This document shows, piece after piece, positions 1,970-60,942 of a DNA stretch of 64,000 nucleotides. A program made the translations under genes and the position numbers. The first letter of the stretch is position 1, and each line of letters starts with the position of its first letter. Source of the DNA: an uncultured Candidatus Saccharibacteria bacterium (GTDB lineage: Bacteria; Patescibacteriota; Saccharimonadia; Saccharimonadales; AWTP1-31); the NCBI GenBank assembly GCA_964629815.1, contig CAZVTA010000002.1, positions 194,096-258,095 of the forward strand. Direction: 5' to 3'. The notes beneath the pieces are model-generated. The model saw nothing but the letters and a program-made list of their open reading frames with translations. It had not been told where the DNA came from and ran no database searches.

Positions 1970-2015
1970 TAAGCAAAAGGTGGTGGCATGAAGCTGCTTA
2001 TGGTACCGTTAGACT

Positions 2016-2476: not shown

Positions 2477-2706
2477 CAAAAAGAAAGCAACAAGCATGGT
2501 TTGTCCGTGTCAGAGGAAGTTACCTTCCAAAAACATGGCAAGGGTGGGTTACCTACATTCCGTACATTTGCTACTTAGTTTTTGCGATGTTTGTATTAGC
2601 GCGTACATTTGGTCCGGAAGAGTGGCTGCTTGCTATTGTATTGTATGTACCGGTTGCCGTTGGCGCTGCGGTAGTTATGCATTGGGTTGCTAGAAATAAG
2701 TCATAG
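2473..2706 (+). CDS. small two-pass membrane protein, unknown function
   Basis: 77-aa ORF with two hydrophobic helices (VTYIPYICYLVFAMFVLA, LLAIVLYVPVAVGAAVVM). Confidence 0.5.
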   Translation: MTKRKQQAWFVRVRGSYLPKTWQGWVTYIPYICYLVFAMFVLARTFGPEEWLLAIVLYVPVAVGAAVVMHWVARNKS

Positions 2707-2726
2707 CATTTTTGTACAATAGGGTT

Positions 2727-3554
2727 ATGGATCGATCTGTATTTTTGCAGGAACTGGCAGTATTTGCGCACGATAATTTTAGAGAAATGCCGTGGCGCGA
2801 AGCGAATGACAAAGGATTATTTGATGTCTACGCAATCTTGGTTAGTGAGGTGATGCTGCAACAAACACAGGTGTCTCGTGTGCTGCCGAAATATAAGGAA
2901 TTTTTAACACGGTTTCCTACTGTTCGGGCTTTAGCCGAAGCTAAGCTGGCCGATGTGCTGGTAGCATGGCAAGGGCTTGGGTATAATCGCCGTGCTAAAT
3001 ATTTATGGCAAGCCGCACAACAGATAGTTTTTCATGGTGAGGGCGTTTTTCCTCGGCAACAGAAAGAACTTGCCATGCTACCAGGTATTGGTGCCAATAC
3101 CGCCGGTGCAATATGCGCCTATGCGTTTAATCAACCGGTAGTATTTATCGAAACAAATATACGCACGGTGTTTATACACGAGTTTTTTCGGCATAGCGAG
3201 CATGTTCACGATAAAGAAATTGTAACAATGCTCTCAGATATTTTGGTGCACGTTCCTGCGTTCTTTGACAGCTACCGTGAATTTTACTGGGCATTAATGG
3301 ATTATGGTGTTTATCTAAAGTCAACGATAGGCAACGCTTCTCGTAGTAGTCGACATTATGCAAAACAGTCTATGTTTGAAGGCTCACGGCGCCAAGTAAG
3401 GGGTGTCGTATTGCGACTATTGGCGAATAGTGGTGAACTAAGTTTTGCTGCAATCCGAAAAAAATGCACAGATAATCGGTTAAAGAGTGTAGTGGAGGAT
3501 CTGGAAAAAGAAGGACTTATTGTTCAGAAAAATGGTCTGTTCTGCTTGCCGTAA
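2727..3554 (+). CDS. HhH-GPD adenine DNA glycosylase (MutY-like) lacking the Fe-S cysteine cluster, with a winged-helix-like C-terminus
   Basis: Motifs VMLQQTQVSRVLPKYKEFLTRFPT, WQGLGYNRRAKYL, HhH LPGIGANTAGAI and catalytic-Asp context FYWALMDYG. No C-x6-C-x2-C-x5-C follows. Start placed at ATG 2727, 6 nt after TACAAT (2715-2720); the ORF track starts at TTG 2712. Confidence 0.75.
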   Translation: MDRSVFLQELAVFAHDNFREMPWREANDKGLFDVYAILVSEVMLQQTQVSRVLPKYKEFLTRFPTVRALAEAKLADVLVAWQGLGYNRRAKYLWQAAQQIVFHGEGVFPRQQKELAMLPGIGANTAGAICAYAFNQPVVFIETNIRTVFIHEFFRHSEHVHDKEIVTMLSDILVHVPAFFDSYREFYWALMDYGVYLKSTIGNASRSSRHYAKQSMFEGSRRQVRGVVLRLLANSGELSFAAIRKKCTDNRLKSVVEDLEKEGLIVQKNGLFCLP

Positions 3555-3600
3555 CGAATCATGCTTATGGTATAATGGCAACAGATAAAAAAGGGTACCT

Positions 3601-4314
3601 ATGAAACGAATTATAACGAGCGCCGTATTAGCTGTGTTACTACTGCCTACACTATTGGTATTGCCTGTAGTACACGCCGACGATAGCGCAAGTACAACAA
3701 CGACAACTACAAGCACAACCAAAACAGAGGGCGAAAAGAAGGTCGAGGCGGATGCGGCAAAGAAAACAGCTGCCGAACGCATAAAAGAGCGTCAGACGGC
3801 ATTAAAGCTTGCTGCGCTTACCACCGCAGAACAAGCAAAGATTAAGTCAAAGTGCAAAGATGCGCAGGTTAAGCTAAAGGACAGTGCGACAAAACTTAAC
3901 ACAAAAGCGCTGACGCGAAGCACGACGTATGATCAGATTATTAAAAATCTTGAAAAGCTTTCTGCTAAGCTCAAAGCAAACGACGTAGATGTAGCTACGC
4001 TCAATGCACAGATAACCGAACTTAAAGCAAAAATTGATACGTATAAAACAGACCTAGCAGAATATAAAATCAGCCTTGGTGATGTTAAGGATGTAGACTG
4101 CGCAACTGACCCAACGGCATTTAAGGCGGCTCTAGAAGCAGCACGAGCTGACCGTAAAGTCGTCGAAGCCGATGCAAAGGCAGTAACACTGTATATTACA
4201 AGCACCATTAAAGTTACTCTCAAAGAAATTAAGACGAGCCTTCAGACAAAAGAAGGGGCATCGTCTAGCGATAGCACCACTACTACAACAGATACTACGG
4301 GAGGAACGCAGTAA
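3601..4314 (+). CDS. secreted coiled-coil protein with Thr-rich termini, unknown function
   Basis: Signal peptide MKRIITSAVLAVLLLPTLLVLPVVHA, heptad-like K/A/L-rich core, poly-Thr runs. Extended -10 TGgTATAAT at 3568-3576. Confidence 0.6.
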   Translation: MKRIITSAVLAVLLLPTLLVLPVVHADDSASTTTTTTSTTKTEGEKKVEADAAKKTAAERIKERQTALKLAALTTAEQAKIKSKCKDAQVKLKDSATKLNTKALTRSTTYDQIIKNLEKLSAKLKANDVDVATLNAQITELKAKIDTYKTDLAEYKISLGDVKDVDCATDPTAFKAALEAARADRKVVEADAKAVTLYITSTIKVTLKEIKTSLQTKEGASSSDSTTTTTDTTGGTQ

Positions 4315-6464: not shown

Positions 6465-6795
6465 TTATCAAAAACAAGCGATTAGTACTGACGCATTCGA
6501 AATTACCTACGGTGAAGTATTTACAATGGCGTTTATGGCAAAGTTACTAGGACTTGTGGGTGAGGCTGGTGAGGTTGCCGAAAAGTTTAAAAAGATACTT
6601 CGCGACAAAGAAGGAAAGCTGAGCGAAGAAGACAAACAAGAGATTATTAAAGAGCTTGGAGATGTTTTATGGTACGTAAGTGCTTTGTCGCATTATCTCA
6701 ATGTTCCGCTAGAAGATGTGGCTTCGAAGAATCTTGATAAAGTATTGGGGCGTAAAGCTCGAGGTGTTACAAAAGGCCAAGGCGACAACCGATGA
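6451..6795 (+). CDS. MazG-like nucleotide pyrophosphohydrolase
   Basis: 114 aa with LNDYQ..A..T, LLGLVGEAGEVAEKFKK and ELGDVLWYV, the EExxE/D four-helix MazG pattern. Overlaps tsaC by 14 nt. Confidence 0.8.
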   Translation: MNLNDYQKQAISTDAFEITYGEVFTMAFMAKLLGLVGEAGEVAEKFKKILRDKEGKLSEEDKQEIIKELGDVLWYVSALSHYLNVPLEDVASKNLDKVLGRKARGVTKGQGDNR

Positions 6796-7472
6796 AGTTA
6801 GCCGAAAGGATTGAGGTAGTTACTGAAAGGTATGACCATGTCTTATGGTGGCAAACAGATGAAGCTGCGCTGGTTTTTGCTGGTCAAGAGGTCACAGAGC
6901 CCATAGTGGTGACCGATTTTTCAGCGACAACAGCAAATAATCTTGGTAGGCTTACCTTGCGGAGCTATTATTCAATGCTTGCAAGTATGTACGATACAGA
7001 CGCTGATTCATTGATGAGTGATAGTCCTGCGCTAGTACCAATTAGTGTGGATAATGGTCTTGTGAAGGCTGCGATTCCCAAAACTACCATTGAATGGTTG
7101 GGCACAAACAGAAATCACGCCAAGCAATGGATGCTTGACGCGGTCGATGCCATTAAGTATGTTCGCACAAGAATTGTGAACGCCATTACCGATACAACAT
7201 TTGATGATGCAGACATCGGTACAAGTGTCAATTTTCATGTAGTCGAGGGTGCGCCGGATGACGTACAGTTGCTTATTCCGCATCTTGTTCTTAACCCGCT
7301 AGGCTGTAGCTGTATTGGTTCAGACCCAAGTGATAGACGGTGGCAAGAAATCAGAGAGATCGGATATGTAGAGCTAAGACAGCACAATGTCGATAGTTAT
7401 GTAGACAGCTTACCGATCGCAGCAGGTCTCGCAGCGCTTAATACCGTACGCATACAAGAAAACGACGCGTAG
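6792..7472 (+). CDS. hypothetical cytoplasmic protein
   Basis: 226-aa ORF with an ATGA overlap to the MazG-like gene. No motif recognised. Confidence 0.6.
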   Translation: MKLAERIEVVTERYDHVLWWQTDEAALVFAGQEVTEPIVVTDFSATTANNLGRLTLRSYYSMLASMYDTDADSLMSDSPALVPISVDNGLVKAAIPKTTIEWLGTNRNHAKQWMLDAVDAIKYVRTRIVNAITDTTFDDADIGTSVNFHVVEGAPDDVQLLIPHLVLNPLGCSCIGSDPSDRRWQEIREIGYVELRQHNVDSYVDSLPIAAGLAALNTVRIQENDA

Positions 7473-7527: not shown

Positions 7528-8253
7528 ATGCAAGAAACAGTAGCACAACACTCACCTGAAATACGGCGTATATATAGCTTAACTCGTGAAGAGTTCTTGC
7601 AGAGATTTATAGAGCCCTGGGATCAAGAGGATCTGCAAAGACGGCAAGATCTTGATATGTTTATGGTAGACCCTGAAACGGGGTATGATGCTTTGCTGCA
7701 TATTTTTTGCGGAGAGACTACTATAATCAACGATTATAGAACGGTGTCGGGTTTTCACTTGGCTTCAACTGCTCCAGATGCTTCAACGAGAACCATTTTT
7801 TTAGATCGCAATAAACTGACACCTACGTCGGCTTCGCGTCTTGAACGACATGACTTTGAACCTTATAAAGCTCCAGTGGAGATCCAAGGTGTTGCAAAAC
7901 GCAATGCCAATGGTCTTAAAATTCGTAACAACGTTCGTATTGCTACGAATCCGATGTTTGGACGTGCCTACGATGCATACTCGATAATTAGAACGCTCAC
8001 CGATGCCGTACGAAACAGAGACCGCTCAGAAGATGTTGAGTCTGAGAAGGCAAGTGTTCGAAAAGGCAATGAGGCTATATATTTTGTGTACGACATGCCC
8101 ATTCTTGGATCGGAAGAGACTGCGCCCGTAAAAATAGTACTCGACAAGCGGACGGAGCAAATTATCACTGCGGCACCGCGGTTACGCTCGAACGCAACTG
8201 CAGAAATCGGACATGTGAGCTTAGTCGATATTCACGATAAACTTATTAATTAG
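7528..8253 (+). CDS. hypothetical protein with a bacterial EndoU-like RNase pattern
   Basis: HIFCGE...(13)...SGFH, then YKAPVEI, NPMFGRAYD and a C-terminal IITAAP. This resembles the bacterial EndoU toxin-domain layout (HI..GE...GxH ... TaYP) as I recall it. Extended -10 TGcTATAAT at 7497-7505. Confidence 0.45.
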   Translation: MQETVAQHSPEIRRIYSLTREEFLQRFIEPWDQEDLQRRQDLDMFMVDPETGYDALLHIFCGETTIINDYRTVSGFHLASTAPDASTRTIFLDRNKLTPTSASRLERHDFEPYKAPVEIQGVAKRNANGLKIRNNVRIATNPMFGRAYDAYSIIRTLTDAVRNRDRSEDVESEKASVRKGNEAIYFVYDMPILGSEETAPVKIVLDKRTEQIITAAPRLRSNATAEIGHVSLVDIHDKLIN

Positions 8254-44832: not shown

Positions 44833-46431
44833 ATGAAGCAAATACTCCGGCGGGCGAACAGACGAATATCCCTCAGTAGTGCCGCAACCTTGTTGGTTGT
44901 GTCCTCGCTGCTTGGCCAAGTACTAGGTTTCCTAAGGGTTAAGTTAGTCAACGGAAACTTCTCGGCGTTTGGTCCAGAAAGTACAGACGTATTTTTCGCT
45001 GCCTTTAAAATACCAGACCTATTCTTCTTTACTATTGCTGCGGGTGCACTGGGTGTGGCATTTATGCCGGTGCTTGCAGATCACCTGCATAACGATGACA
45101 AAAAAGGTGTCTGGCGGCTTTCATCGAGCCTACTAAACCTACTTGCCGTTATTATGTTGGTTGTTGGCATCATTATCTTCGTATTTGCCGAGCCGCTGTT
45201 GCACTATATTGTTGCCCCAAAGCTTGACCCCGAACAGCTACGAAATGGTGTAACGATAATGCGCTTCATTGCCTTCAACCCCTTACTGTTTACGATTACG
45301 GGTATTCTAACTAGTGTTCAACAAACGTATGGGCGTTTTTTCTTTTATGCGCTTGCACCTATCGTCTATAACATTACGATTATCGTAAGTATATTTGTGT
45401 TTCGCGACTCTGTAGGCATTGTGGGGCTCGGTATCGGGGCGTTAGTTGGCGCATTACTACAAGTACTGATTGCAACAGCAGGGCTGGCAGGTATTGGGTT
45501 TACCTATCTGCACGGAGTAGACTTTTCAATGCCTGATTTCAAAAAGATCTTACGCCAGTTACCGCCTCGTTCTATAGATCAGGGGATTATGTCCATCAAT
45601 AGTATCGTGCACACGAACTATGCAAGGCGGCTTGGTACGGGCTATGTGACATTTTACGAAAACGCCTACACTTTGCACACGGCACCAACTTTACTTATTG
45701 GAACGGCAATATCATCAGCGGTGTTTCCGCGGTTAAACGAGAGTGTTGCAAAGGGGCAAGATAATAAGTTTCATAAAGAGTTTCTACAAGTACTTCGGGT
45801 AATGATTTGGATTGTTATGCCGACCGTTGTACTGAGCTATTTTTGCCGAGGCTATCTTGCCCGGCTTATCTTTAGCCGAAATGCACCCGAAATTGCTACC
45901 ATATTTGGTTTTTTGTGTGGCGCTATATTTTTCCGCACTATTTATACGATTGTGTCGCGGTATTTTTATGCGCAGAAAGATACATGGACACCGCTCATTG
46001 ATTCTTTGTTTGCGATTGTGCTGAATATAGTGCTTGTAATGCATTTATCTAAGCCTTCTTCGTACGGTGCTTCTGGTATTGCGCTTTCGGAGTCGATTGT
46101 GGCTGGCTGCCAGCTATTCATCCTAACGTTTATTATGTTGCTGCGTGATCCAAAGCTACTCAATAAAGAGTTTTGGAGTGGCGTACTGCGCATTATTTCT
46201 GTAACAGGGTTTAGCGTGGTGACGGCCTTTATTATGATTAGTATCTTCCCGCTCAATATTAACGATACAGGTTTTATTACGCTTGGGTTTAAACTGGGTA
46301 TGATAGCAGGCACAACGCTGCTGGTGCACGTCGTTGTGTCGTATATGTTTGGGCTTGAAGAATCGGTGCCTATTGTGTGGAAAATGAAGCAGCTTACACG
46401 GCTTGTGTTCCGGCCCGTGCGGGTTGATTAG
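44833..46431 (+). CDS. murJ: lipid II flippase MurJ (MviN family)
   Basis: About 14 TM helices, with the N-terminus SSLLGQVLGFLRVKLV...FFAAFKIPDLF typical of MurJ. Start placed at ATG 44833, after TATAAT (44818-44823). Confidence 0.8.
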   Translation: MKQILRRANRRISLSSAATLLVVSSLLGQVLGFLRVKLVNGNFSAFGPESTDVFFAAFKIPDLFFFTIAAGALGVAFMPVLADHLHNDDKKGVWRLSSSLLNLLAVIMLVVGIIIFVFAEPLLHYIVAPKLDPEQLRNGVTIMRFIAFNPLLFTITGILTSVQQTYGRFFFYALAPIVYNITIIVSIFVFRDSVGIVGLGIGALVGALLQVLIATAGLAGIGFTYLHGVDFSMPDFKKILRQLPPRSIDQGIMSINSIVHTNYARRLGTGYVTFYENAYTLHTAPTLLIGTAISSAVFPRLNESVAKGQDNKFHKEFLQVLRVMIWIVMPTVVLSYFCRGYLARLIFSRNAPEIATIFGFLCGAIFFRTIYTIVSRYFYAQKDTWTPLIDSLFAIVLNIVLVMHLSKPSSYGASGIALSESIVAGCQLFILTFIMLLRDPKLLNKEFWSGVLRIISVTGFSVVTAFIMISIFPLNINDTGFITLGFKLGMIAGTTLLVHVVVSYMFGLEESVPIVWKMKQLTRLVFRPVRVD

Positions 46432-46452
46432 CGCAACAGGGGTTACCTCTGT

Positions 46453-46458
46453 TATAAT
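46453..46458 (+). promoter_or_regulatory. -10 box (TATAAT) serving the relic lepA start and the present lepA
   Basis: TATAAT lies 9 nt upstream of the relic ATG at 46468. No other promoter-like box occurs before lepA. Confidence 0.5.
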
Positions 46459-46467
46459 ACGTTGGAT

Positions 46468-46514
46468 ATGGACCAATCAAACATCCGAAATTTCTGTATC
46501 ATTGCGCATATTGA
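46468..46514 (+). pseudogene. relic 5' terminus of a second lepA allele
   Basis: 41/47 nt are identical to lepA 46613-46659. It encodes MDQSNIRNFCIIAHI versus MNQSNIRNFCIIAHI. Confidence 0.75.
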
Positions 46515-46525
46515 ACGCTTTGCTC

Positions 46526-46598
46526 ATGAGACAACCACTTCGTGGTTTTCTCATCGCGCCGGGCAAAAAATGCGGTTTTTGCGCGGGCTGCTCTTTCC
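46526..46598 (+). repeat. IR-L: left copy of a 73-75-nt inverted repeat flanking lepA
   Basis: Its reverse complement matches 48412-48486 at about 93%. It contains two hairpins (gagacaaccac-ttcg-gtggttttctc and ccgggcaaaaa-N6-tttttgcgcgg). Confidence 0.85.
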
Positions 46599-46612
46599 GG
46601 CTAGGGGTGTAT

Positions 46613-48394
46613 ATGAATCAATCTAACATACGTAACTTCTGTATCATTGCGCATATTGATCATGGGAAGAGTACATTAGCCGATCGGCTACTCGAACTTA
46701 CAGGTACTGTTCAAAAACGTGATATGAAAGCGCAGTTGCTCGATAAAATGGATCTTGAGCGTGAAAAAGGTATTACGATAAAACTTGCTCCGGTTCGTAT
46801 GCACTACAAGGGTTACGAGCTGAATCTGATCGATACACCTGGGCATGTAGATTTTAGTTACGAAGTAAGTCGTAGCCTGGAGGCGTGCGAAGGTGCGATT
46901 TTGGTCGTTGATGCTAGCCAGGGGATTCAGGCGCAGACCTTAGCAAACGTGTATTTAGCTATAGCTGCAGATCTGAAAATTATCCCTGTTCTCAATAAGA
47001 TTGACCTGCCAGCGGCAGATGTGGAAAAGGTGAGTGCAGAGGTGATTTCGCTGCTTGGTTGTACTAAAGACGAGATTTTGCATATTAGTGCTAAAACCGG
47101 GCAGGGCGTAGAGGCGGTGCTGGATAAAGTTGTTGAAGAAATCCCTGCACCGAATGGCAATACCAACACAGAAACACGAGCCCTTATTTTTGATAGTTAT
47201 TATGATGATTACCGAGGGGTGATTTTGTATGTGCGTGTGTTCGATGGATCTATCGATAAAGGTAACGATATAGCCATGCTCGCCACAGGCGCAGACGGTT
47301 TAGCGCTCGAAGTGGGCAGCCTTACACCAAACATGTCTCCTGCCAGATCACTGAGTGCAGGCGAGATTGGCTACATTGTTACAAACCTGCGCAGCACACG
47401 GGAGGCAAAAGTAGGTGACACGGTTACGCTCAAAAGTCGTCCGGCATTGCAGCCGCTGGCAGGCTATAAAGACGTAAAGCCATTTGTATATGCCGGTTTT
47501 TTCCCAGATAGTAACGAACATTACCAGCTACTAAAAGACGCAGTCGATAAGCTGAGTTTGAGTGATTCGGCGCTGCAATTTGTGCCAGAAAACTCGCCGG
47601 TACTTGGCTTTGGCGTTCGTATTGGTTTCTTGGGACTTTTACACATGGATATTGTAAAAGAGCGACTAGAGCGTGAATACGATCTTGAGCTTGTAGTCAC
47701 TAACCCGTCAACAGACTATCAGATAACACTTACTACCGGCGAAGAGCTTGATATTCGGTCTGCTTCGGAGCTGCCCGAAGTATCAAAGATTACCGAAATT
47801 CGTGAGCCATGGATAAAAGGTGAGGTCGTGGTGCCGAAGGATTATGTAGGGGCTGTCATACAGCTTATTTCAACCAAACGCGGTCTACAGAAAAACCTTA
47901 GCTATGTCGATGCGCAGCTAGCAGTTGTGGACTTTGAAGCGCCGCTCGCCAATCTTCTGACAGATTTCTATGATCAACTAAAAAGCGTTACCAGTGGATA
48001 CGGTAGCTTTAACTACGAACTTGCCGATTACCGTGCGGAAGATTTGGTGCGTGTAGACTTTTATGTGTCTGGTGAAATGGTCGAGGCGTTGAGCGTCATG
48101 GTGCATCGTAGTGAAGCCCAAAAGCTTGGCCGAGAAACGGTAGAAAAACTAAAAGAAGTGATCCCACGACAGAATTTTCAAGTGGCACTCCAGGCCGGCA
48201 TTGGTGGCAAATTTATCGCGCGCGAAGACATAAGTGCATATCGTAAAGACGTTACAGGCTATTTGTATGGCGGTGACGTATCGCGTAAAAAGAAACTGCT
48301 TGCCAAACAGGCAAAAGGTAAAAAGCGTATGAAGCGCTTTGGCAAAGTCGACATTCCCGCAGAAGCATTTACGGTGATGCTCAAGCGTGATTAG
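46613..48394 (+). CDS. lepA: elongation factor 4 (LepA)
   Basis: NIRNFCIIAHIDHGKSTLADRLLE, DTPGHVDF, NKIDL, and the C-terminal LepA-specific region ending ...AFTVMLKRD. SD AGGGG at 46603-46607. The ORF-track extension from 46403 is non-coding. Confidence 0.95.
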   Translation: MNQSNIRNFCIIAHIDHGKSTLADRLLELTGTVQKRDMKAQLLDKMDLEREKGITIKLAPVRMHYKGYELNLIDTPGHVDFSYEVSRSLEACEGAILVVDASQGIQAQTLANVYLAIAADLKIIPVLNKIDLPAADVEKVSAEVISLLGCTKDEILHISAKTGQGVEAVLDKVVEEIPAPNGNTNTETRALIFDSYYDDYRGVILYVRVFDGSIDKGNDIAMLATGADGLALEVGSLTPNMSPARSLSAGEIGYIVTNLRSTREAKVGDTVTLKSRPALQPLAGYKDVKPFVYAGFFPDSNEHYQLLKDAVDKLSLSDSALQFVPENSPVLGFGVRIGFLGLLHMDIVKERLEREYDLELVVTNPSTDYQITLTTGEELDIRSASELPEVSKITEIREPWIKGEVVVPKDYVGAVIQLISTKRGLQKNLSYVDAQLAVVDFEAPLANLLTDFYDQLKSVTSGYGSFNYELADYRAEDLVRVDFYVSGEMVEALSVMVHRSEAQKLGRETVEKLKEVIPRQNFQVALQAGIGGKFIAREDISAYRKDVTGYLYGGDVSRKKKLLAKQAKGKKRMKRFGKVDIPAEAFTVMLKRD

Positions 48395-48411
48395 CTTTTT
48401 GAATCATGAAT

Positions 48412-48486
48412 GGAAAGAGTAGCCCGCGCAAAAAAAATGCATTTTTTGCCCGGCGCGATGAGAAAACCGCGAAGTGGTTGTCTCAT
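48412..48486 (-). repeat. IR-R: right copy of the inverted repeat flanking lepA
   Basis: Reverse complement of IR-L, with 3 small differences. Confidence 0.85.
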
Positions 48487-48494
48487 TTTTGGCC

Positions 48495-48535
48495 TTCCCG
48501 CAGAAGCATTTACGGTAATGCTCAAACGCGATTAG
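48495..48535 (+). pseudogene. relic 3' terminus of a second lepA allele
   Basis: 38/41 nt are identical to lepA 48354-48394, including the TAG. All 3 differences are synonymous in the lepA frame. Confidence 0.75.
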
Positions 48536-48544
48536 CCTAGCTGT

Positions 48545-49024
48545 CTAGCGAACAATAATTCTCGATGCAATAGGACTATCTTTGTCCGAAGAGTTTTTGT
48601 CTTGTTTTTGGGTAAAAACGGTAAGGTTACTGTCTTTTTTTACGTCGGCGAGTTTGATGGTTTTGCTGTTCTGCGTAACCTTCGTGTCTTTGTTGATAAT
48701 TACGCTTGATGTAGTTCCATTGGCAAGCTTTACGGATAGTTTGCTGCCCGATAGGCTGTCAAATTTTCCGATGACGGTCGTAGGGAACAAAGGGTTTTTC
48801 GACAGGATGTTCATAGGGTTAACGAGATCGTTGATGCTTTTCTTTAAAGCGTCCGCACTTGCTTTCTGTCCTGCTTCGTGCCCGCGAGAGTAGCCAAGTA
48901 GAAAACTGCCGCCAATTGCAACAAGGACGAGCACGATTAAGATCGGAGTTTTTACTGCTTTTGACTGAATTTTTTGCCAAAGACTCTTTTTTTCATTGCC
49001 TGTTGATGATGGCATAACTTTCAC
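48545..49024 (-). CDS. membrane-anchored hypothetical protein (paralog of 21663-22157)
   Basis: GTG start 5 nt after AAGGAG. TM helix ILIVLVLVAIGGSFLLGY. The C-terminal domain aligns by eye with the 164-aa ORF next to the sortase. Confidence 0.6.
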   Translation of the reverse strand: MKVMPSSTGNEKKSLWQKIQSKAVKTPILIVLVLVAIGGSFLLGYSRGHEAGQKASADALKKSINDLVNPMNILSKNPLFPTTVIGKFDSLSGSKLSVKLANGTTSSVIINKDTKVTQNSKTIKLADVKKDSNLTVFTQKQDKNSSDKDSPIASRIIVR

Positions 49025-49117: not shown

Positions 49118-52100
49118 ATGAAAGCGTCTGTGCTAAAACAACATTTTCAGAAATCAAAACAACGTATGTGGCTGTTGGCAGGCTCATTTGGCTTGCTTTT
49201 TGTTGTGATCGTGTCCGTTTTTTATATATCGATTATTATGCCCATGTTCGCAAAAGCGTATTCGGGTGTTGGCTTGGGTACCGACCAAGACCCGTACCAG
49301 ATTACTACTTGCGATCAGCTGCAAGAGATATCCGAGGATCTCGACGCGCACTATGTTCTGGTTCAAGACATAGATTGTTCTGCAACAATGGAGTTAAATA
49401 ACTTTGAGCCGATCGCTGCGTTCTCAGGAACGCTTGATGGACGAAACTATGCAATTAAAGATATAAGCATTGTTCGACCTTCTCAGTATTATGCCGGTAT
49501 TTTTGAGTGGACCGCCGGTGCTACGATAAAAAACCTATCTCTTATAAAGGATCAGACGCCAGAAGGCTATGAATCGATAGTGGGTGGAGGCGTGGTCGGT
49601 ACACTTGTTGCAGAGGTGCGCGGCGGGACGATCATTCAAAATGTGCATAATGAAATGAATGTCAAAGTTCTGGGATATGATATTAATACGTCTGACGAAA
49701 CACCCGGTATTGCTTATGCGGGGGGGTTGGTAGGGCTAAACAGAGGAACGGTTTACACTAGCTCATCAGTTGGCAGCGTTACTGCTCAGGTTGGCGTTGT
49801 TCAGGCTCTCCGTATCGGAGGTTTAATTGGCAACATGGCCGACGCTGATGGCGGTCGCATTGAGGATAGCTATGCAGATGCATCGGTTACAGCTTCATCA
49901 AACGAGTCTGAGGTTATCGGAAGTTGCGGTGGCTTGGTTGGTCAGATAGGTGCACTAGGATTTATTACCCGTAGTTATAGTGCAGGAACCGTAAATTGTA
50001 CACAACAATCGCTAAGAGCTGGTGGTTTTGTTGGTGTTCAAGCTGGCGCTGGTGATGTAGATGTCATTGAAAGTTCATTTTCGACAACAAGTGTAAGTGG
50101 GTATGAGAGTGGCGGCTTCGTTGGGGACTCCGGAAGTGATAGTTTAACAAACGTTTATTTCGATGTTACAAGCTCGGGCCAAACTTTGTGCGGTCTGCCG
50201 GACCAGCAACTTAATGACTGCTATCCAGTCAATGCCGATGGGCTTTCTCCAGATTACTTTTTAGGAACTTCAAGTGGTCAACCACTTCAAAACTTTGACT
50301 TTATAGACACATGGACGATTGTTCCTGGGCAATTGCCGCAAATAAAGCCGTCTTTGGTGACGGCAGACCCCCCGGTTAATATTGGTGCAATTAGAGCAGA
50401 GGGCTCCATTAATCTTAGCTGGGAGGCGCCTGCCGTAAATGGTGTGCGAAACTCCGATATCGACGGCTACGTTATAGAGTACAAAAAAAATAACGATACA
50501 TCTTGGTCAGCTGTTGAACTTGGTGTTCCTATCGACCAAATCTCTTATGCATTTACGGACAATAAGATAGATAGTTCAACGTATCATTTTCGTATACGTA
50601 GTCATAGTACAGTTGGAACAAGTAATGTACCGAGCTCAGAAGCGGATTCTATTGTAGATGCTCCTTCGACGGCACCTGAATTAACAGTCTTGAGTCAAAC
50701 TGCACGCCAGGTTGTTCTTGGTTTCTCTGAAGCGCCGCGATCATCGGACTATGTGTTTCAGTACAAAAAAGTTGCGGACAGTGATTGGTCAACGGCGCTC
50801 GAAGGTGTAGAGTATACAGCCGGAGAAAATGTAACAATTGTTGCACTTGATCCCTCGACTCCTTATGAATTTAGGGCACTCGGTCGCAACTCGAGTGGTC
50901 AGGGACCTTGGTCTACCAGTGCAACCGCAACCACCGGCGCCGCGCAGCAGATTAGTATATCTGATTGTGCTGGCCTACAAGCTATGAACAATAATCTGGA
51001 AGCAAAATATACACTTACTGCTGATATAGATTGCACAGCCACTACAGAATGGAATGATGGTCAGGGCTTTCAGCCGATAGGCCCCAATCAAGATAGCGGT
51101 AAAGACATATTTAGTGGAGAGTTTGATGGTGCAGGGCATGCAATACGTAATTTATATATAAATCGGTCATTTGAAATTGATAACGCTGCACGTACGGAGG
51201 GTGTTGGGTTATTCGGTACGGTTGCATACGGTACTATAAAAAATGTGCGACTTAGTGGGTTTGTAGTTGCCGCAACGTATGAACTGGATCCGTCTATCGA
51301 CGCTGATCGTAATGGGCTGCCAGATTCACCAGATCTTGTTGATTATGACGGGGCAAATCTTCCGCTTGATGTACTAGGGATTTACACTACTTTTCCGCGG
51401 GTCTACGCAGGCTCCTTGGTCGGCATTTCTATAGGTAAAAATAAGTTTTCAGACATTCAGGCAGAAAACGTTGTTGTTAGCGGCTCGGTGGCTGGTGGTC
51501 TGATTGGTACACACGCAGGTATATTTGGTAGAGATTCACAGTTTACTGCATTAGGACAGGACATATCAAAGAGCACATTGTTTGTCGATAATTTGCAGTC
51601 GACCGGCGCTGTATGGGGAACAATTAGTGGAGGTATTATTGGCGTAGCTTCTGCAATGATGGGTGACCTAGAAGGTAACGAGCCTACGCTCACAATCACA
51701 AATTCAGCATCGTCTGCTGAGGTCTCTGGTAATCTGAGTGGCGGGCTTGTCGGTATTGGCTTATCGACTTCAGCTTTACTGCCGCTTGGGATCATTGATC
51801 AGTCAGAAGCGCCTACAATGTCGTTTCAAGATGTTACGGAAAAAGCACTGTCGTCACAGATGTTAATTATTACAAATTCTCATGCAACTGGCAATGTTTC
51901 GGTTTGTAATTCGCCAAGTGGTGTCCAGGTTGGTTCGCTCGGTGGTCTTATTGGTGTGGGCGTGGGGGTTAATCTAGAGAATACTTACGCAACAGGGGGT
52001 ACGGGTGCATGTACCGACACGACCGACGACTTAGATTTGTATGGCGGAGCGTACGGGGGTCTTGCTGGTACGCTGGTTATATCTACCGTTCAAAAGAGTC

Positions 52101-55100
52101 ATGCAACTGGCAATATAACACTAGTCAATGATCGCACAGATGGCCATTCGCAAGGAGGTGTTCTGGCCGTTACGGGTGGCCTTGTTGGAGTAATTATTAA
52201 CTCTGGCAATCAGAACGGTTCGATTGCGATTGATAGTGTTTATGCAACGGGTAGTACTACGGTTGAGGGAGTTAACGGTTTGCTGCATATTGGTGGCGGA
52301 CTCATGGGGGTGTATCTTGGCGGCGGTAGTATCACAAAGAGTTATGCAACCGGGAATATACTAAACAAAACAGCTCAACAAAATATTGGAGGCATCTCTA
52401 TCGTGGGAGGTTTTATGGGCGTTGCAGTCGGGGCCGATGTGCAGTATATGCTAAGCGCAGCGTTTACGATATTTAGTCAGAGCGCACTAAGCGCAGTACC
52501 GACCCAAGGTCTTGTGGTATCAGATAGCTATGCAACAGGTTCGGTGTTGTCTAATAAAGGCGATAGCGGTGGCGTTTTGTTGAGTGTGCATGGCGGGTTT
52601 GGTGGGTTGAGTATTGGTAATATTACCTATAACACTATCCATGCCAGTGGTGACGTCGGTCTGCAACATAATGGTGAATTTTATGTCGATACAGGTAGTG
52701 GCGGCATCGGCCAGGATTTTTTCGAGGTTGTGGGAGAAAATAACTCAGCAGTTGCTGTTGGTGGTGGTTTATTCGGTATGACTGCTGGTGCGGACGTAAC
52801 ACATATAGTTAATGGATTCCTTAATATAGACGATAAGCTGGGCGACGGGCTGGCAATATATAACTCGTACGCGAGCGGAAGAGTAGATGCACTTATTTCG
52901 GGTGGGTTGGTAGGTGCAGCAGAGCTGCGAACGAAGATTAGTAAAACGTATGCAACAGGCGACGTAAGTGGGCTCTTTGTTGGCGGACTCGTTGGTGAGT
53001 CGGGTACGCTTTCGTCAGTTGGTATATCGGTACTTGCAAATCTTGTATTGGGTGATTATACCCATGAAATACCCGATCAAATATTAGAGGGTATACGGCA
53101 TAGTTTTGAGGGTCTTGTACCGGTTGAGCTTGTCAACACCTATGCCACAGGCGACGTTCGCGGAAAAGAAGCTAGGATTAGTCTAGGTGGTTTTAACTTT
53201 ACAGACCCAGCCGCAACACCAATTCGCATGTCTTCAATCGCTGGGGGTCTCGTAGGTCTGGTTGGTGGCGCGGGCTCAGTTATTAAAGATTCTTACGGTT
53301 CGGGTGATGTAAGTGTCGAGACACTTACAGAGCAGCCAGTAGACAAAACGAAAATACGCTTTCCGGAGTCACCGAGCTTTATTGGTGGTATTGCGGGTGT
53401 CGTGCTTGCTGTTCCACAGGCAGATGCTGAAGCTATGCGTGACTACTTTGCACCGGATGCAGATCAGTCAGACCCTGCAGCACTTTTCCCTGAGCCGATG
53501 CGTATAGAGCGTGTATTTTCGGTTTCGAAAGTAAGCATAGCTGACGGCGTGGTCAGTGGAGGCGCTTTCGGACTCTTCTTATCGCCAATTAGTGTAGCTT
53601 TTCAGGATTCTATTTCTGTTCCTGACGGGGTTTTCTATAGCGTAAGTGACAATTATTATGACAAATCAAAAATTGACACTTCTGCATGCGATGGATTTAC
53701 GAATCCAAGCGATCGATTTAGGCAGTTGTGGCAACAGTTTATTGATAGAAATGATAGAGAAAAACTCGAAGCATTTTACACTACGAGCGATTTTGGAGAG
53801 GCTACTATTGTACCTTCTTTAGATACACTGTATGATCTTTCTTCGGATTCGTGGCAGCCCGCCTTTAAGCCGATTAGCTGTACGGCGGTTAATGAGGGTA
53901 ATGCTCAGCCAAATTACTTTATAAACAATAAAACCAATGCACCGCTCAATAACTGGGATTTTACGAATGTATGGCGCACGCGGCCAAATCAATATCCAAC
54001 ATTCGTTGCGGGCGTATCTACCAACGATCCAGAAGGCCCAGAAGATCCTGGCAGTCCTGTTACTCCGTCAACGCCAACGTCATCTACAAATACGGTTAAC
54101 CCACAAACTAGGACCACAGTTCGGGATATACTACAAAACCTGATATCTCCTAACGGAAGACTCAATACCAATGATTCTCGTGTAAAGGGTATATGGACAA
54201 TTTTTGCGAATGTTCCACCGGTTATAGCAAAAAGTATCCCGTACTTACTGATTCTAATGCTGCTTTTCTTGGCTGCAATGTATGCTCGACAAGCACTGCG
54301 CGAGTACAGGCAACTGAGCGAATATCATAATAGTGCAGTTCGTGTTGCTTCAGCAAAGGATGCTGTTAACAGCTATCTGGCAATTACTACACACTATCTC
54401 AATACGCCTGTAGCAATTATGAATGGCGCGCTCGAGTTATTGACTTCATTGAACAAGATTTCTGCAGCACGTGCAGATACCTTAAGAATTAAGCTAAAGA
54501 AATTTAGTGAAGACGTTTCTCGTTTGTTAGCTGCCAATCAGGTTTCGAGTGCGGGTTCCGTTAATCGCAGTAAAGAGGTGGAGCACCCATTGCCAAGTCC
54601 TGTAACGGCAAAAGCGGTCTGGGTTCCGGCTAGTGTTGCCTTTGCTCTGCTGGTTATTGCGAATGTTATCTTTATCTTCGCCAATGTCTTCGATAGGTCT
54701 CCGCTACGGATAACCATAGAATTTGGCCTATTCCTTCTTGGGATACTGCTCGTAGCCTTGTCGTATCGATATCGAAATTATCTCGAACAGGCAAAGATAT
54801 TAACGCTCGAACAACTTACTATTGAATCGTCGTTATACAAAAAACGAGAAGCGTTTATACCCGAAGCCACCAAGATAATTGGCGACAATTTTGAATCATT
54901 ATCTATCGCAAGCCAGGATATAAAGAAAATCCCAGAAGCCAAAGCATTCTTCAATGGCTTGGCGATGCTGGGGGGCGTAAACACAGGATTACAAAATCTA
55001 GAGAAGTTTGCACATTTCAAGACAGATCCGCCGCTCTTTGATATAACCGCTGCTGCCAATAAAGCAGTGCAGGAGGTTGCAGACAGGGCAAAGGCAAAAG

Positions 55101-55531
55101 GTGTGCTCGTGACTGCAAGCATTGCCTCGGGCGTAATAACGCATATTGAACCTGCAGAAATAAAGCATGTGTTTGACTCTTTGCTTGATAACGCAATCAA
55201 GTTCAATAATCAAGGCGGCAAGGTTGTTATGAACGTTGCTAAAAAGTACGACAAGCTGGTGGTGTCAGTGAGTGATACCGGTGTTGGTATATCCGAACAA
55301 AAATTGCCAAGCTTGCTACAGCCTTTTAGTCGCGGCACTGACTCGATGCAGTACAACTACGAAGGTGTTGGCCTGAGTTTGTACGCAACCAAGTTGATTG
55401 TCGATAAATTAGGTGGCTCAATCATAATCGATAGCACCCTTGGCAAGGGCACTACTGTAACAATAAATCTACCCCTGCAGTATGAAGCGAATGTGTTAGC
55501 GCCTATGGTTGTTACGCCACAAGCTGCCTAA
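49118..55531 (+). CDS. giant (2137-aa) GLUG-repeat/FN3 ectodomain protein fused to a C-terminal histidine kinase
   Basis: N-terminal TM helix. Two head modules (CDQLQEIS...DIDCSAT; CAGLQAMN...DIDCTATTEWNDGQGFQPI...FDGAGHAIRNLYINR). Dozens of GG[LF][VI]G repeats and two FN3-like domains. Three TM helices. H-box ITTHYLNTPVAIM (His codon 54392-54394). N-box DNAIKF, G1 DTGVGI, G2 GVGLSL. Confidence 0.85.
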   Translation: MKASVLKQHFQKSKQRMWLLAGSFGLLFVVIVSVFYISIIMPMFAKAYSGVGLGTDQDPYQITTCDQLQEISEDLDAHYVLVQDIDCSATMELNNFEPIAAFSGTLDGRNYAIKDISIVRPSQYYAGIFEWTAGATIKNLSLIKDQTPEGYESIVGGGVVGTLVAEVRGGTIIQNVHNEMNVKVLGYDINTSDETPGIAYAGGLVGLNRGTVYTSSSVGSVTAQVGVVQALRIGGLIGNMADADGGRIEDSYADASVTASSNESEVIGSCGGLVGQIGALGFITRSYSAGTVNCTQQSLRAGGFVGVQAGAGDVDVIESSFSTTSVSGYESGGFVGDSGSDSLTNVYFDVTSSGQTLCGLPDQQLNDCYPVNADGLSPDYFLGTSSGQPLQNFDFIDTWTIVPGQLPQIKPSLVTADPPVNIGAIRAEGSINLSWEAPAVNGVRNSDIDGYVIEYKKNNDTSWSAVELGVPIDQISYAFTDNKIDSSTYHFRIRSHSTVGTSNVPSSEADSIVDAPSTAPELTVLSQTARQVVLGFSEAPRSSDYVFQYKKVADSDWSTALEGVEYTAGENVTIVALDPSTPYEFRALGRNSSGQGPWSTSATATTGAAQQISISDCAGLQAMNNNLEAKYTLTADIDCTATTEWNDGQGFQPIGPNQDSGKDIFSGEFDGAGHAIRNLYINRSFEIDNAARTEGVGLFGTVAYGTIKNVRLSGFVVAATYELDPSIDADRNGLPDSPDLVDYDGANLPLDVLGIYTTFPRVYAGSLVGISIGKNKFSDIQAENVVVSGSVAGGLIGTHAGIFGRDSQFTALGQDISKSTLFVDNLQSTGAVWGTISGGIIGVASAMMGDLEGNEPTLTITNSASSAEVSGNLSGGLVGIGLSTSALLPLGIIDQSEAPTMSFQDVTEKALSSQMLIITNSHATGNVSVCNSPSGVQVGSLGGLIGVGVGVNLENTYATGGTGACTDTTDDLDLYGGAYGGLAGTLVISTVQKSHATGNITLVNDRTDGHSQGGVLAVTGGLVGVIINSGNQNGSIAIDSVYATGSTTVEGVNGLLHIGGGLMGVYLGGGSITKSYATGNILNKTAQQNIGGISIVGGFMGVAVGADVQYMLSAAFTIFSQSALSAVPTQGLVVSDSYATGSVLSNKGDSGGVLLSVHGGFGGLSIGNITYNTIHASGDVGLQHNGEFYVDTGSGGIGQDFFEVVGENNSAVAVGGGLFGMTAGADVTHIVNGFLNIDDKLGDGLAIYNSYASGRVDALISGGLVGAAELRTKISKTYATGDVSGLFVGGLVGESGTLSSVGISVLANLVLGDYTHEIPDQILEGIRHSFEGLVPVELVNTYATGDVRGKEARISLGGFNFTDPAATPIRMSSIAGGLVGLVGGAGSVIKDSYGSGDVSVETLTEQPVDKTKIRFPESPSFIGGIAGVVLAVPQADAEAMRDYFAPDADQSDPAALFPEPMRIERVFSVSKVSIADGVVSGGAFGLFLSPISVAFQDSISVPDGVFYSVSDNYYDKSKIDTSACDGFTNPSDRFRQLWQQFIDRNDREKLEAFYTTSDFGEATIVPSLDTLYDLSSDSWQPAFKPISCTAVNEGNAQPNYFINNKTNAPLNNWDFTNVWRTRPNQYPTFVAGVSTNDPEGPEDPGSPVTPSTPTSSTNTVNPQTRTTVRDILQNLISPNGRLNTNDSRVKGIWTIFANVPPVIAKSIPYLLILMLLFLAAMYARQALREYRQLSEYHNSAVRVASAKDAVNSYLAITTHYLNTPVAIMNGALELLTSLNKISAARADTLRIKLKKFSEDVSRLLAANQVSSAGSVNRSKEVEHPLPSPVTAKAVWVPASVAFALLVIANVIFIFANVFDRSPLRITIEFGLFLLGILLVALSYRYRNYLEQAKILTLEQLTIESSLYKKREAFIPEATKIIGDNFESLSIASQDIKKIPEAKAFFNGLAMLGGVNTGLQNLEKFAHFKTDPPLFDITAAANKAVQEVADRAKAKGVLVTASIASGVITHIEPAEIKHVFDSLLDNAIKFNNQGGKVVMNVAKKYDKLVVSVSDTGVGISEQKLPSLLQPFSRGTDSMQYNYEGVGLSLYATKLIVDKLGGSIIIDSTLGKGTTVTINLPLQYEANVLAPMVVTPQAA

Positions 55532-56713: not shown

Positions 56714-56740
56714 TTAGCACTCTTGACTCTACAGTGCTAG
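56714..56740 (+). promoter_or_regulatory. CIRCE operator upstream of hrcA-grpE
   Basis: TTAGCACTC-N9-CAGTGCTAG versus the consensus TTAGCACTC-N9-GAGTGCTAA. Overlaps a TTGACT -35-like box. Confidence 0.85.
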
Positions 56741-56775
56741 CGTTATATACTTCTACCGAAGTAAAGGTAGTAGTT

Positions 56776-58258: not shown

Positions 58259-58675
58259 ATGAACATCGAACATATACCCTGGCAAGAAGCGGTCGGTTTG
58301 CTCGATAGCGTTACACAAGTGCATCCAGTGCAAGACTATTGGTCGTGGGTTGATAGATTTGGGAGATTTAAATATGGTGCGGTATGGCATTTCTCTCTTA
58401 ATACGCCTACCGATATGTACGATTCGTTGGCTATTAAACAATCAGAGATTGGTGTGCAAACGAATGGCTTTGATGCATTAACAGGTGCAATGAATCCCGT
58501 AGAGTATATTCCTGCGTATAGCTTTTGCCGCAAATTGGGTAGAACTGTAACTACAGGTGTTGTTATAGCGCGGACAGGTCATGTTGCAGTTCCCCTAATG
58601 AGCACCATGCGTTCTCGTGTAACGCCAAGTATGGTTGTCGAAGATCTAAGAAGAGTTATGCTAGAAGACAATTAG
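58259..58675 (+). CDS. hypothetical protein inside the heat-shock cluster
   Basis: 138-aa ORF starting 3 nt after the previous stop. No motif recognised. Confidence 0.5.
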   Translation: MNIEHIPWQEAVGLLDSVTQVHPVQDYWSWVDRFGRFKYGAVWHFSLNTPTDMYDSLAIKQSEIGVQTNGFDALTGAMNPVEYIPAYSFCRKLGRTVTTGVVIARTGHVAVPLMSTMRSRVTPSMVVEDLRRVMLEDN

Positions 58676-58698
58676 CACTCTTGACATAGGAGTGCTAG
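58672..58698 (+). promoter_or_regulatory. CIRCE operator upstream of dnaK
   Basis: TTAGCACTC-N9-GAGTGCTAG. The spacer contains TTGACA (58681-58686). Confidence 0.85.
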
Positions 58699-58719
58699 TT
58701 TTATTATGATAGAATTACT

Positions 58720-59039: not shown

Positions 59040-60942
59040 AATTATTGGAATCGACTTAGGAACAACAAATAGCGCAATGGCTGTGATGCAGTCTGGTAAG
59101 CCAGACATTATTACAAACAGCGAAGGTAACCGAACGACCCCAAGCGTGGTTGCCATTAACAAAAATGGCGAACGCTTGGTTGGACAGGTTGCTCGCAGGC
59201 AGCAGGTTACCAATAGCAAGAACACCGTATACGAAGTAAAGCGACTAATTGGTCGTCGCTGGGAAGACAAAGAAGTGCAGCGTGACATTAAGCTCATGGG
59301 CTATGAAATGGTCAAGAGCGGCAATGGTGTAAAGGTAAAAATGGGCGACAAAGAATACAGCCCAGAAGAGATTAGCGCAATGGTGCTGTCGAAGCTTAAG
59401 GCAGACGCCGAAGCATTTACCGGAGAAAAAATTACTGAAGCGGTGATTACCGTACCAGCATATTTCGACGATAGCCAACGCCAAGCAACCAAAGATGCTG
59501 GCAAGATCGCTGGCCTAGAAGTTAAGCGCATTATTAACGAACCAACTGCTGCAGCGCTTGCGTACGGCCTCGATAAAGGTAGTAAGAGCGACGAAAAAAT
59601 TGCTGTGTTCGACCTCGGTGGCGGTACCTTTGACGTATCTATCCTAGAACTGGGTGATGGCGTATTCGAGGTTAAAAGTACTAATGGTGATACGCACCTT
59701 GGTGGTGCCGACTTTGACCGTGCAATCGTTAACTACTTTGTAGACGAATTTAAAAAAGAGCATGGCATTGACCTGACTGACGATAAGGCTGCAATGCAGC
59801 GACTTCGTGACGAGGCTGAAAAGGCGAAGATTGAACTATCGACGACGAATGAAGTGGACATTAACCTGCCATTCTTAACTGCAGATGCAGACGGTCCAAA
59901 ACACTTCGAGCACAAATTAACACGTGCCAAGCTCGAAAGTCTTGTTGCCGATTTGGTAGATAAAACTGCTATTCCATGCGAAAAAGCGCTCAAAGACGCA
60001 AAGCTTAAAGCAAGCGATATTGATGCGGTTGTGTTGGTTGGCGGTATGACTCGCATGCCAGCAGTCGTCGAAAAAGTTAAGAAAATATTTGGTAAAGATC
60101 CTATGCAAGGGGTTAACCCCGATGAAGTTGTTGCAGTTGGTGCAGCAATTCAGGGTGGTGTATTGCAGGGTGATGTTAAGGATGTGTTACTGCTTGATGT
60201 AACGCCGCTGAGTCTTGGTATTGAAACGCTTGGTGGTGTGGCCACAAAACTTATTGAGCGAAACACGACAATCCCAACCAGTAAGAGCGAAGTATTTAGT
60301 ACCGCTGCCGACAATCAGAATCAGGTTGAAATCCACGTTGTGCAAGGTGAGCGTGAATTTGTTGCCGATAACAAGAGTCTTGGTCGCTTTGTGCTCGACG
60401 GTATTCCGGCCGCTCCAAGAGGTGTCCCTCAAATCGAAGTTACCTTTAATATCGATGCTAACGGTATTTTGAATGTAACCGCCAAAGACAAGGGAAGTGG
60501 CAAAGAGCAGAGTATTACCATTCAAAATAGCGGTAATCTGGACAAGACAGAAGTCGAGAAAATGGCGAAAGAAGCCGAAACACATGCCGAAGAAGACAAG
60601 AAAAAACGTGAAGCAATCGATGCGCGAAACCAGCTCGATAGCGCAATCTATCAGGCAGAAAAGATGAAGTCGGACAACAAAGATAAAATTGACGAAGACG
60701 ACGCGAAAAAACTCGACGAGGCAGTAGAGGTTGCTAAAAAAGTAGCAGCAGACGAAAAAGCCGACAAAGACGCATATGAAAAAGCAGCTAAGGAGCTAAC
60801 CGACGCAATTATGCCGATTGGCGCAAAAATGTACGAAGCGGCTACAAAAGAAGACGAAAAAGCCGACAAAGACGAAGATGTCAAAAAGACCGACAAAGAC
60901 GAACCGGTAGAAGGCGAAGTCGTCGAAGACGGTGAAAAATAA
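59032..60942 (+). CDS. dnaK: molecular chaperone DnaK (Hsp70)
   Basis: [29 protein letters not shown], and a Lys/Asp/Glu-rich C-terminal tail. Confidence 0.97.

Follow-up and report, generated by a model that had tools for sequence, protein, structure and literature searches.

We analyzed a 64,000-nucleotide (nt) stretch of DNA, hereafter the window, from an uncultured Candidatus Saccharibacteria bacterium (assembly GCA_964629815.1, contig CAZVTA010000002.1, positions 194,096 to 258,095, forward strand), in which an intact gene for the translation GTPase LepA (EF4) lies between two inverted copies of a short repeat. We call this repeat element E, its left copy E-L and its right copy E-R. Immediately outside the two copies lie short partial duplicates of the matching lepA ends, which we call relics, as opposed to the live ends of the intact gene. 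A first-pass annotation, made from the sequence, had described lepA as bracketed by inverted arms with partial lepA termini outside them; all of its coordinates and counts held, the arms being 92% identical. The features of the locus are given below, where handles such as L058 denote comparison loci.

46444–46459, + strand: native lepA promoter region TACCTCTGTTATAATA, containing the extended −10 box TGTTATAAT
46450–46458, + strand: extended −10 box TGTTATAAT, 9 nt upstream of the relic ATG at 46468
46468–46514, + strand: 5′ relic, lepA nt 1–47 in native position, MDQSNIRNFCIIAHI; 41/47 identical to 46613–46659
46468–46626, + strand: relic open reading frame (ORF), 52 amino acids (aa), from the relic ATG through E-L to a TAA at +12 to +14 of the true lepA start
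46515–46525, + strand: head extension of E-L, ACGCTTTGCTC; related extensions in L004, L012, L015, L039, and L058
46526–46598, + strand: element E-L, two-hairpin core, left arm of the inverted repeat; nhmmer 73.4 bits
46599–46612, + strand: linker GGCTAGGGGTGTAT with a Shine-Dalgarno (SD)-like AGGGG before the live lepA start
46613–48394, + strand: intact lepA (EF4), 593 aa; Pfam GTP_EFTU, GTP_EFTU_D2, EFG_C, LepA_C
48395–48411, + strand: linker from the lepA stop codon to the E-R tail
48412–48486, − strand: element E-R, inverted E with its tail toward lepA, right arm of the inverted repeat; nhmmer 65.0 bits
48487–48494, + strand: filler TTTTGGCC from the E-R head to the 3′ relic
48495–48535, + strand: 3′ relic, last 41 nt of lepA with the stop codon, in native position; 38/41 identical to 48354–48394

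The inverted repeat aligned as a long block of 60 nt (46526–46585/48427–48486, 92% identity) and a short block of 23 nt (46576–46598/48412–48434, 96% identity), with one 2-nt insertion or deletion between the arms overall. The direct repeat at the 5′ end extended over 52 nt (46463–46514 versus 46608–46659, 87% identity); counted from the ATG, the relic MDQSNIRNFCIIAHI and the live start MNQSNIRNFCIIAHI agreed at 41 of 47 nt, with five of the six differences at third codon positions. At the 3′ end (48354–48395 versus 48495–48536, 93% identity), all three differences between relic and live end were synonymous. The longest exact stretches shared by relic and gene in these alignments were 23 and 21 nt. 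None of the shuffled sequences gave even one match to an arm, the flanking repeats scored 69 compared with a shuffle maximum of 25, and the sequence of the inverted repeat was confined to these two sites within the window. The insert itself is 93–99 nt long and non-coding, and the composition of lepA shows no break relative to its surroundings. A convergent ORF (48545–49024), for which a Pfam search gave no match, has its stop codon 9 nt from the end of the 3′ relic. A 41-aa ORF running through E-R in frame with the 3′ relic was counted as chance and was not reproduced in the L036 sequence.

The first-pass annotation had proposed that the relics are leftovers of the native lepA ends, and comparison with a relative lacking E agreed with this. 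L060 has the same gene order as the window (ftsH-murJ-lepA-small convergent ORF-giant protein); in it, TACCTCTGTTATAATA is followed by 7 nt and then by the lepA ATG. In the window, the identical 16-mer (46444–46459) is followed by 9 nt and then by the relic ATG, and the 5′ relic therefore occupies the native start position of lepA. The best matches of the LepA protein were from Saccharibacteria (TM7), the nearest non-identical one sharing 87% identity. Several relatives' LepA sequences are over-extended N-terminally and there read LCYN, which is the translated extended −10 box TTATGTTATAAT located ∼10 nt upstream of their real lepA ATG. We had considered these extensions as traces of E and found them to be translated promoter. 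Because the −10 box lies only ∼10 nt before the real ATG, lepA looks leaderless. A related annotation problem affects the window itself: the NCBI LepA entry for this gene (P0002, 622 aa; window 46526–48394) starts at the ATG of the E-L head. This start is in frame here (87 nt) and out of frame in L012 and L058 (88 nt), identifying it as an annotation artifact caused by the element.

Element E and its distribution

The arms of the inverted repeat are two copies of a dispersed, low-copy, two-hairpin, non-coding element of ∼75–90 nt. A search of other genomes returned core matches across Saccharibacteria metagenome-assembled genomes (MAGs) and metagenomes: a 23-nt core of the arms matched exactly at 14 loci in ∼10 Saccharibacteria MAGs, with no more than three copies per genome, and a 21-nt core at 42 metagenome loci. 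A profile built from the core-matched copies retrieved ∼60 distinct copies, including diverged ones. As exact-core copies numbered only 1–3 per contig of 0.3–0.9 Mb, E is of low copy number. Neither core matched viral contigs, and a phage origin of E was discarded on the absence of the 23-mer from them. The first-pass annotation had allowed that the inverted repeat might be a scattered repeat resembling repetitive extragenic palindromic (REP) sequences or miniature inverted-repeat transposable elements (MITEs), with the relics being artifactual; the repeat is indeed scattered, but the relics are real.

E begins with the head ATGAGAC and ends with the tail TGCTCTTTTCC. In hairpin 1, compensatory changes from A-U to C-G were found at two stacked pairs in 11–13 of 34 sequences, and in hairpin 2 (GCCGGGCAAAAAA...TTTTTGCTCGGGC), double compensatory changes were found at four pairs (three sequences at one pair and one each elsewhere). 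Many copies, including the five loci listed above, carry a head extension like GCGCTTCGCTT. The two ends, ATGAGAC... and ...GCTCTTTTCC, are unrelated, and no terminal inverted repeats were detected. Nor was a target duplication of fixed length: ∼50 copies had no significant flanking repeat, and where one was present, it measured 8, 23, 24, 30, 37, 42, 43, 45, 47, or 52 nt. A covariance search of both arms against Rfam gave no hit even at E ≤ 10. Clustering of 391 neighboring ORFs at the ∼60 copies revealed no recurrent gene family that could represent a mobility gene. Most copies occupy short spacers at gene boundaries; E occurs in both orientations and adjoins the starts and ends of genes, tRNA genes, or rRNA, and no general bias in the orientation of E relative to genes was seen. 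A role as a terminator was rejected because a hairpin followed by a U-run occurs only in the E-R copy and is not general. In the literature that we searched on Saccharibacteria and Patescibacteria repeat elements, nothing relevant to E was found; as far as this search showed, E is a small structured repeat family that has not been described, and we likewise found no description of its gene-end-duplicating behavior.

Individual copies have settings of their own. In L009, one copy (1336–1405, − strand) lies inside the 23S rRNA gene (999–4187, + strand), at gene nt ∼340–410; this gene is 3189 nt long, compared with a 2925-nt model, and a second, diverged copy (777–845, − strand) lies in the spacer upstream of it. 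Insertions in rRNA are known in this phylum, and E may be one of their sources. In L010 (4487–4557), the head of E precedes the 5′ end of tRNA-Gly by 6 nt, and in L057 (3075–3145), it precedes that of tRNA-Val by 3 nt. In L013 (E at 6749–6817), the E head directly adjoins 14 nt, GAGCTAAAGAGCCA, that repeat the 5′ part of tRNA-Phe; the real tRNA-Phe lies ∼100 nt away. In L039, E (7748–7820) precedes tuf by 17 nt and is oriented opposite to it; read in reverse, its head extension, TAAGGCGAAGC, takes the position of a ribosome-binding site, so that an SD sequence may be available from either end of E.

Relics of gene ends beside E

The layout of relic, E, and intact gene end recurs at other loci, as follows.

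lepA 5′ end, L012 and L058: 47-nt duplication, junction after lepA nt 47, same head extension and frame as in the window
lepA 3′ end, L036: 45-nt relic
lepA 3′ end, L007: nested lepA-E-relic (45 nt)-E-relic (30 nt), with two E subfamilies
tpiA 5′ end, L006 and L061: 37–41-nt duplication
class-V aminotransferase 5′ end, L023: 43 nt, 42/43 identical
shorter repeats: L052 (24/24), L014 (22/23), and L015 (8 nt)

Seven of the ∼59 analyzed copies of E lie at lepA ends, far above the share of lepA in a genome. The live gene stood on the tail side of E in 10 of 11 duplicated cases, the exception being L052. The targets (lepA 5′, lepA 3′, tpiA, and aminotransferase ends) have no common core sequence. 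Comparison of lepA loci in relatives also revealed sites without E, in which the gene end is present as a single copy (L060, L059, and L003), and a locus with the 5′ module only (L058), the 3′ end of which is clean.

The 5′ and 3′ modules of the window are independent. The 5′-only module of L058 indicates that they arose in separate events, and the tpiA modules of L006 and L061 likewise have no partner element at the other end of the gene. E-L is closest to the lepA 5′ element of L058 (94.5% identity, versus 92% to E-R), again pointing to two steps. E-R, in turn, is closest to E-L (92%) and not to the lepA 3′ elements of L036 or L007, and the two arms share a unique AACCACTTCG(T/C)GGTT loop and GCGCGGGC. 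Of the two, the 5′ module is the older and is shared with other lineages, its patchy occurrence reflecting retention or spread; the 3′ arm was added later, from the same E lineage. The LepA proteins do not follow the distribution of E: LepA of the window is 84% identical to that of L058 and 83% to that of L012, both E-bearing, and 86–87% identical to several relatives without E at the 5′ end, and LepA of L058 is 88% identical to that of L003, which lacks E. Thus, the E-bearing lepA genes are not mutual closest relatives.

Presence and absence of a module can be compared most closely at tpiA. Over 1317 nt, the empty site L062 matches the filled L061 at 99.5% identity, and the two encode the same TpiA, so the module was gained or lost cleanly, without a scar. 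No donor tract next to E was visible in this comparison, and no clear microhomology was seen at module junctions, older cases not being polarizable. Other empty tpiA sites are L063/L064, L065, and L066. L006 and L061 carry the module at the same tpiA site, although their DNA is only 82–87% identical; their relics contain lineage-specific variants (AAA CTA CTG in L006 and AAG CTA CTC in L061). TpiA itself is 99% identical between L061 and L006 (pgk-tpiA region) despite the 82–87% DNA identity, a conservation that reflects either unusually strong purifying selection or a recent transfer of tpiA.

The first-pass annotation was also right that differences between relic and gene are biased toward synonymous ones, third codon positions being strongly favored: in nine relic/live pairs, 32 of 41 differences fell at third positions (P = 6e-9 versus uniform), among them CGT/AGG, a two-step synonymous arginine change. 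Real lepA orthologue pairs, in codon alignment, had 69–76% of their differences at third positions. The substitutions (G/A, C/T, A/T, C/A, and T/C) occur in both directions and do not follow the adenine-only pattern of diversity-generating retroelements. The bias had been taken as a sign of a foreign lepA allele, and we abandoned it as proof after the tpiA relics turned out to carry the synonymous variants of their own lineage. Because relics co-vary with the live copy of their own lineage, they appear to be kept current by recombination or gene conversion, and the synonymous bias therefore needs no foreign lepA.

The relic ORF runs without interruption through E in each of the five long 5′ cases, its stop lying at +2 to +14 of the true start, with an ATGA/GTGA overlap in L012, L058, and L023, at +6 to +8 in L006, and at +12 to +14 in the window. 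An SD-like AGGGG or GGAGG is found 5–9 nt before the live start, beside the E tail; linkers comparable to GGCTAGGGGTGTAT are GGCTGGGGGTGGTTT (L012), GCGGAGGGGCAGC (L006), and TGGAGCTTCTCA (L023). Because two of the three reading frames of E are open in this orientation, read-through by itself is weak evidence, and the consistent position of the stop is stronger. These features suggest that the native leaderless promoter would give an mRNA starting at or near the relic ATG, that ribosomes would start there, translate through E, and terminate at the live lepA start, and that re-initiation at the live start would be aided by the SD sequence next to the E tail.

Origin of the layout

We consider it probable that the layout of the window reflects two independent insertions of E, each with a long target duplication. 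A copy of E would enter a few dozen nt inside a gene end, and the stretch from the insertion point to the terminus (47 nt at the 5′ end and 41 nt at the 3′ end of lepA) would be duplicated; intact lepA would be re-formed on the tail side of E, with the short relic staying on the head side at the native position. In genomes this compact, a product would survive only if it restored the gene end and supplied an SD sequence at the correct spacing. The short direct repeats would make precise loss possible, as loss is what recombination between them is expected to produce. Gene conversion or recombination with E-less alleles would keep relic and live copies alike, leaving synonymous-biased differences, and recombination with E-less alleles would overwrite the promoter-relic stretch. 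Target duplications of >30 bp without mobility genes have been described mostly in naturally competent species (PMC2853133), and natural competence is reported for Saccharibacteria (PMC10633639 and its preprint PMC10187176).

Several observations weigh against this reading. The ∼50 copies of E without a flanking repeat indicate that duplication is not obligatory in insertion. The duplications start exactly at the start codon in four of five long 5′ cases (that of the window starting ≤5 nt earlier) and end ≤1 nt from the stop codon in four 3′ cases; these limits are tighter than a blind staggered cut predicts, and for the 3′ ends we have no selective reason to offer. The tail-side bias (10 of 11) suggests an asymmetric mechanism. 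The difference between L061 and L062 is not polarized and may be either a gain or a precise loss. No enzyme or partner gene emerged among the clustered genes beside the ∼60 copies. Finally, the start of transcription, read-through translation, and coupling proposed for lepA are read from sequence features.

Some of the same observations would be explained by import, akin to homology-facilitated illegitimate recombination, in which transforming DNA with a donor E and its adjoining gene pairs with the recipient gene and the free E-head end is joined illegitimately 30–50 nt inside, the live end then being that of the donor and the relic that of the recipient. We regard this as possible but unlikely. 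Start and stop codons, which bound the relic/live similarity (to ≤5 nt in the window and ≤1 nt at the stop), are where orthologues from different genomic contexts cease to align, and a one-sided join would account both for codon-bounded duplications and for the head being on the relic side. Moreover, the junction falls at the head of E in 10 of 11 cases, the head fillers are variable, the codon-position spectrum equals that of functional orthologues, the relic of L036 is nearer to the live end of the window (five differences) than to its own (eight), and the phylum is naturally competent. However, the relic and live 5′ end of L061 equal those of the empty L062 at lineage-specific sites, with no donor allele visible, and co-variation across lineages that are 82–87% identical requires later homogenization, which on its own explains the codon spectrum. 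In addition, the donor state, with E abutting lepA and no relic, was not found among the loci examined. A more speculative reading, separate from import, which we hold doubtful, is that E is an active non-autonomous element with a dedicated polar mechanism, in which the head joins and a few dozen nt are measured from the end of the transcript or ORF; it would enter the ends of housekeeping genes (lepA, tpiA, aminotransferase, and even 23S rRNA) while rebuilding them, and the retained module would turn leaderless genes into translationally coupled, structure-gated ones.

Other origins are progressively less likely, in the order of a site-specific module, a one-step cassette, an invertible switch, and an artifact. 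E together with a copy of a gene end could act as a miniature attP-like module moved by a tyrosine or serine recombinase, or by an integron-like enzyme that acts on folded hairpins, supplied in trans, the direct repeats being attL and attR. The same junction, at lepA nt 47, in three genomes, the junctions ∼45 nt (L036 and L007) and ∼42 nt (window) from the lepA stop, the repeats of 24–52 nt within the range of att sites overlapping gene ends, the clean presence and absence, and the conserved hairpin structure all fit such a module, but no recombinase gene lies beside any E copy, the targets lack a common core, most copies have no flanking repeat, and an excised circle of 130–150 nt would be unprecedented; we think it improbable. 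The model of the first-pass annotation, a mobile E-lepA-E unit resembling a composite transposon whose foreign lepA would have displaced the resident gene in a single event, sparing ∼15 codons at either end, fares slightly worse and was not upheld. It draws on the close relationship of the inverted arms with their shared unique loop, on relics of similar length at both ends, and on the synonymous-biased differences. Against it stand the dispersal of the arms, the 5′-only modules at lepA in L058 and at tpiA in L006 and L061, the nested 3′ modules of different E subfamilies in L007, the greater similarity of E-L to the L058 element than to E-R, the same 5′ junction in three lineages whose LepA proteins are not mutual closest relatives, the lack of a compositional break between lepA and its surroundings, and the lack of a transposase among the genes beside E copies. 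We find it very improbable that the locus is an assembly or multiple displacement amplification chimera of two strains, or a switch inverting lepA via its arms, as two alleles of each gene end side by side and inverted arms 1.8 kb apart could suggest. Three Logan contigs encode the exact LepA protein, and in the two that were examined, from assemblies of the separate runs SRR16481184 and SRR16481183, window 46300–48700 was recovered at 100% identity; a one-off chimera is therefore excluded, because two independent assemblies match, besides the source assembly of the window, and exact runs between relic and gene are only 21–23 nt. The layout also recurs, with diverged sequence, in unrelated projects and assemblers. 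As for a switch, all assemblies contain a single orientation, inversion would separate lepA from its promoter, and 5′-only modules cannot invert.

Relation to known systems and other features of the window

Insertion with long target duplication was reportedly first described in Helicobacter. In the cases compiled by Furuta et al. 2010 (PMC2853133), a direct repeat of >30 bp of a single-copy target flanks an insert without a mobility gene, and a relative has the empty site, as is the case here for tpiA (L061 versus L062) and for lepA (the window versus L060, L059, and L003). The repeats of ∼46–47 bp may there overlap the 3′ end of a gene, and the hosts are mostly naturally competent bacteria (PMC2853133). 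Those inserts, however, are kb-scale restriction-modification gene complexes and one-off cases, whereas E is a family of structured repeats of 75–95 nt that recurs at the same gene ends, with a duplication that extends to the start or stop codon and thereby restores the gene. E offers a case of insertion with long target duplication that is concrete, that recurs, and that can be dated, in a phylum now open to genetic work.

Short non-coding hairpin repeats such as REP/BIME, ERIC, Correia, and RPE are dispersed, mostly intergenic, found in either orientation, and able to affect the expression of neighboring genes. E resembles them in being short, non-coding, hairpin-forming, and dispersed, and it shares with REP sequences and REPINs the character of short palindromic, mainly extragenic units. 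No gene family recurs beside the ∼60 copies as a REP-associated tyrosine transposase (RAYT) gene might, and exact-core copies remain at 1–3 per contig. In contrast to this group of repeats, E lacks terminal inverted repeats as well as a short target duplication of fixed length, is present in low copy, and lies inside coding ends with regenerating duplications of 24–52 nt. RPEs insert in frame into proteins, whereas with E, gene ends are duplicated. Mycobacterial interspersed repetitive units (MIRUs) are small intergenic repeats with short ORFs that overlap flanking stop and start codons, suggesting translational coupling. E is like them in that the end of a short ORF overlaps a gene start, but MIRUs lie in operons as tandem repeats, are not built as hairpins, and cause no duplication of gene ends.

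Elements that replace gene ends include islands in the 3′ ends of tRNA and tmRNA genes, SXT in the 5′ end of prfC, and endonuclease-linked C-terminal duplications in fungal mitochondria. Like these, E sits in a gene end, a substitute end keeps the gene intact, and the displaced end persists as a relic; unlike E, which is ∼75 nt long, geneless, and found at several unrelated targets, they are large, encode a recombinase or endonuclease of their own, and carry a substitute end that is fixed for a single target. A composite transposon or MITE-flanked cassette would place a gene between inverted repeat copies, as in the window, but the arms occur singly at lepA elsewhere, no transposase was seen beside E copies, and the whole unit is flanked by two different gene-end relics instead of one short duplication.

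Saccharibacteria genomes are tiny and tightly packed, and E shows a route by which a small selfish or regulatory repeat can colonize them: it lies inside the ends of housekeeping genes, nothing is lost as the end is duplicated, and it can leave without a scar. E may also serve as portable homology for recombination between lineages. For annotation, it causes wrong start-codon calls, and the pseudo-duplicated gene ends mimic assembly errors or gene-swap cassettes.

Three further features of the window lie downstream of the lepA locus. A giant ORF of 2137 aa (49118–55531), with faint fn3 hits and an HATPase_c hit, follows lepA, and its synteny is conserved in L060. Two copies of TTAGCACTC-N9-(C/G)AGTGCTAG lie at 56714–56746 and 58672–58704; these palindromes resemble the CIRCE operator bound by HrcA, and similar palindromes were found beside E near hrcA in L003 and in L005. 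Lastly, a family of 37-nt direct repeats rich in GACGAAAAAGCCGACAAAGACG occupies 59973–60912, which is probably a repetitive Lys/Asp/Glu-rich coding region.

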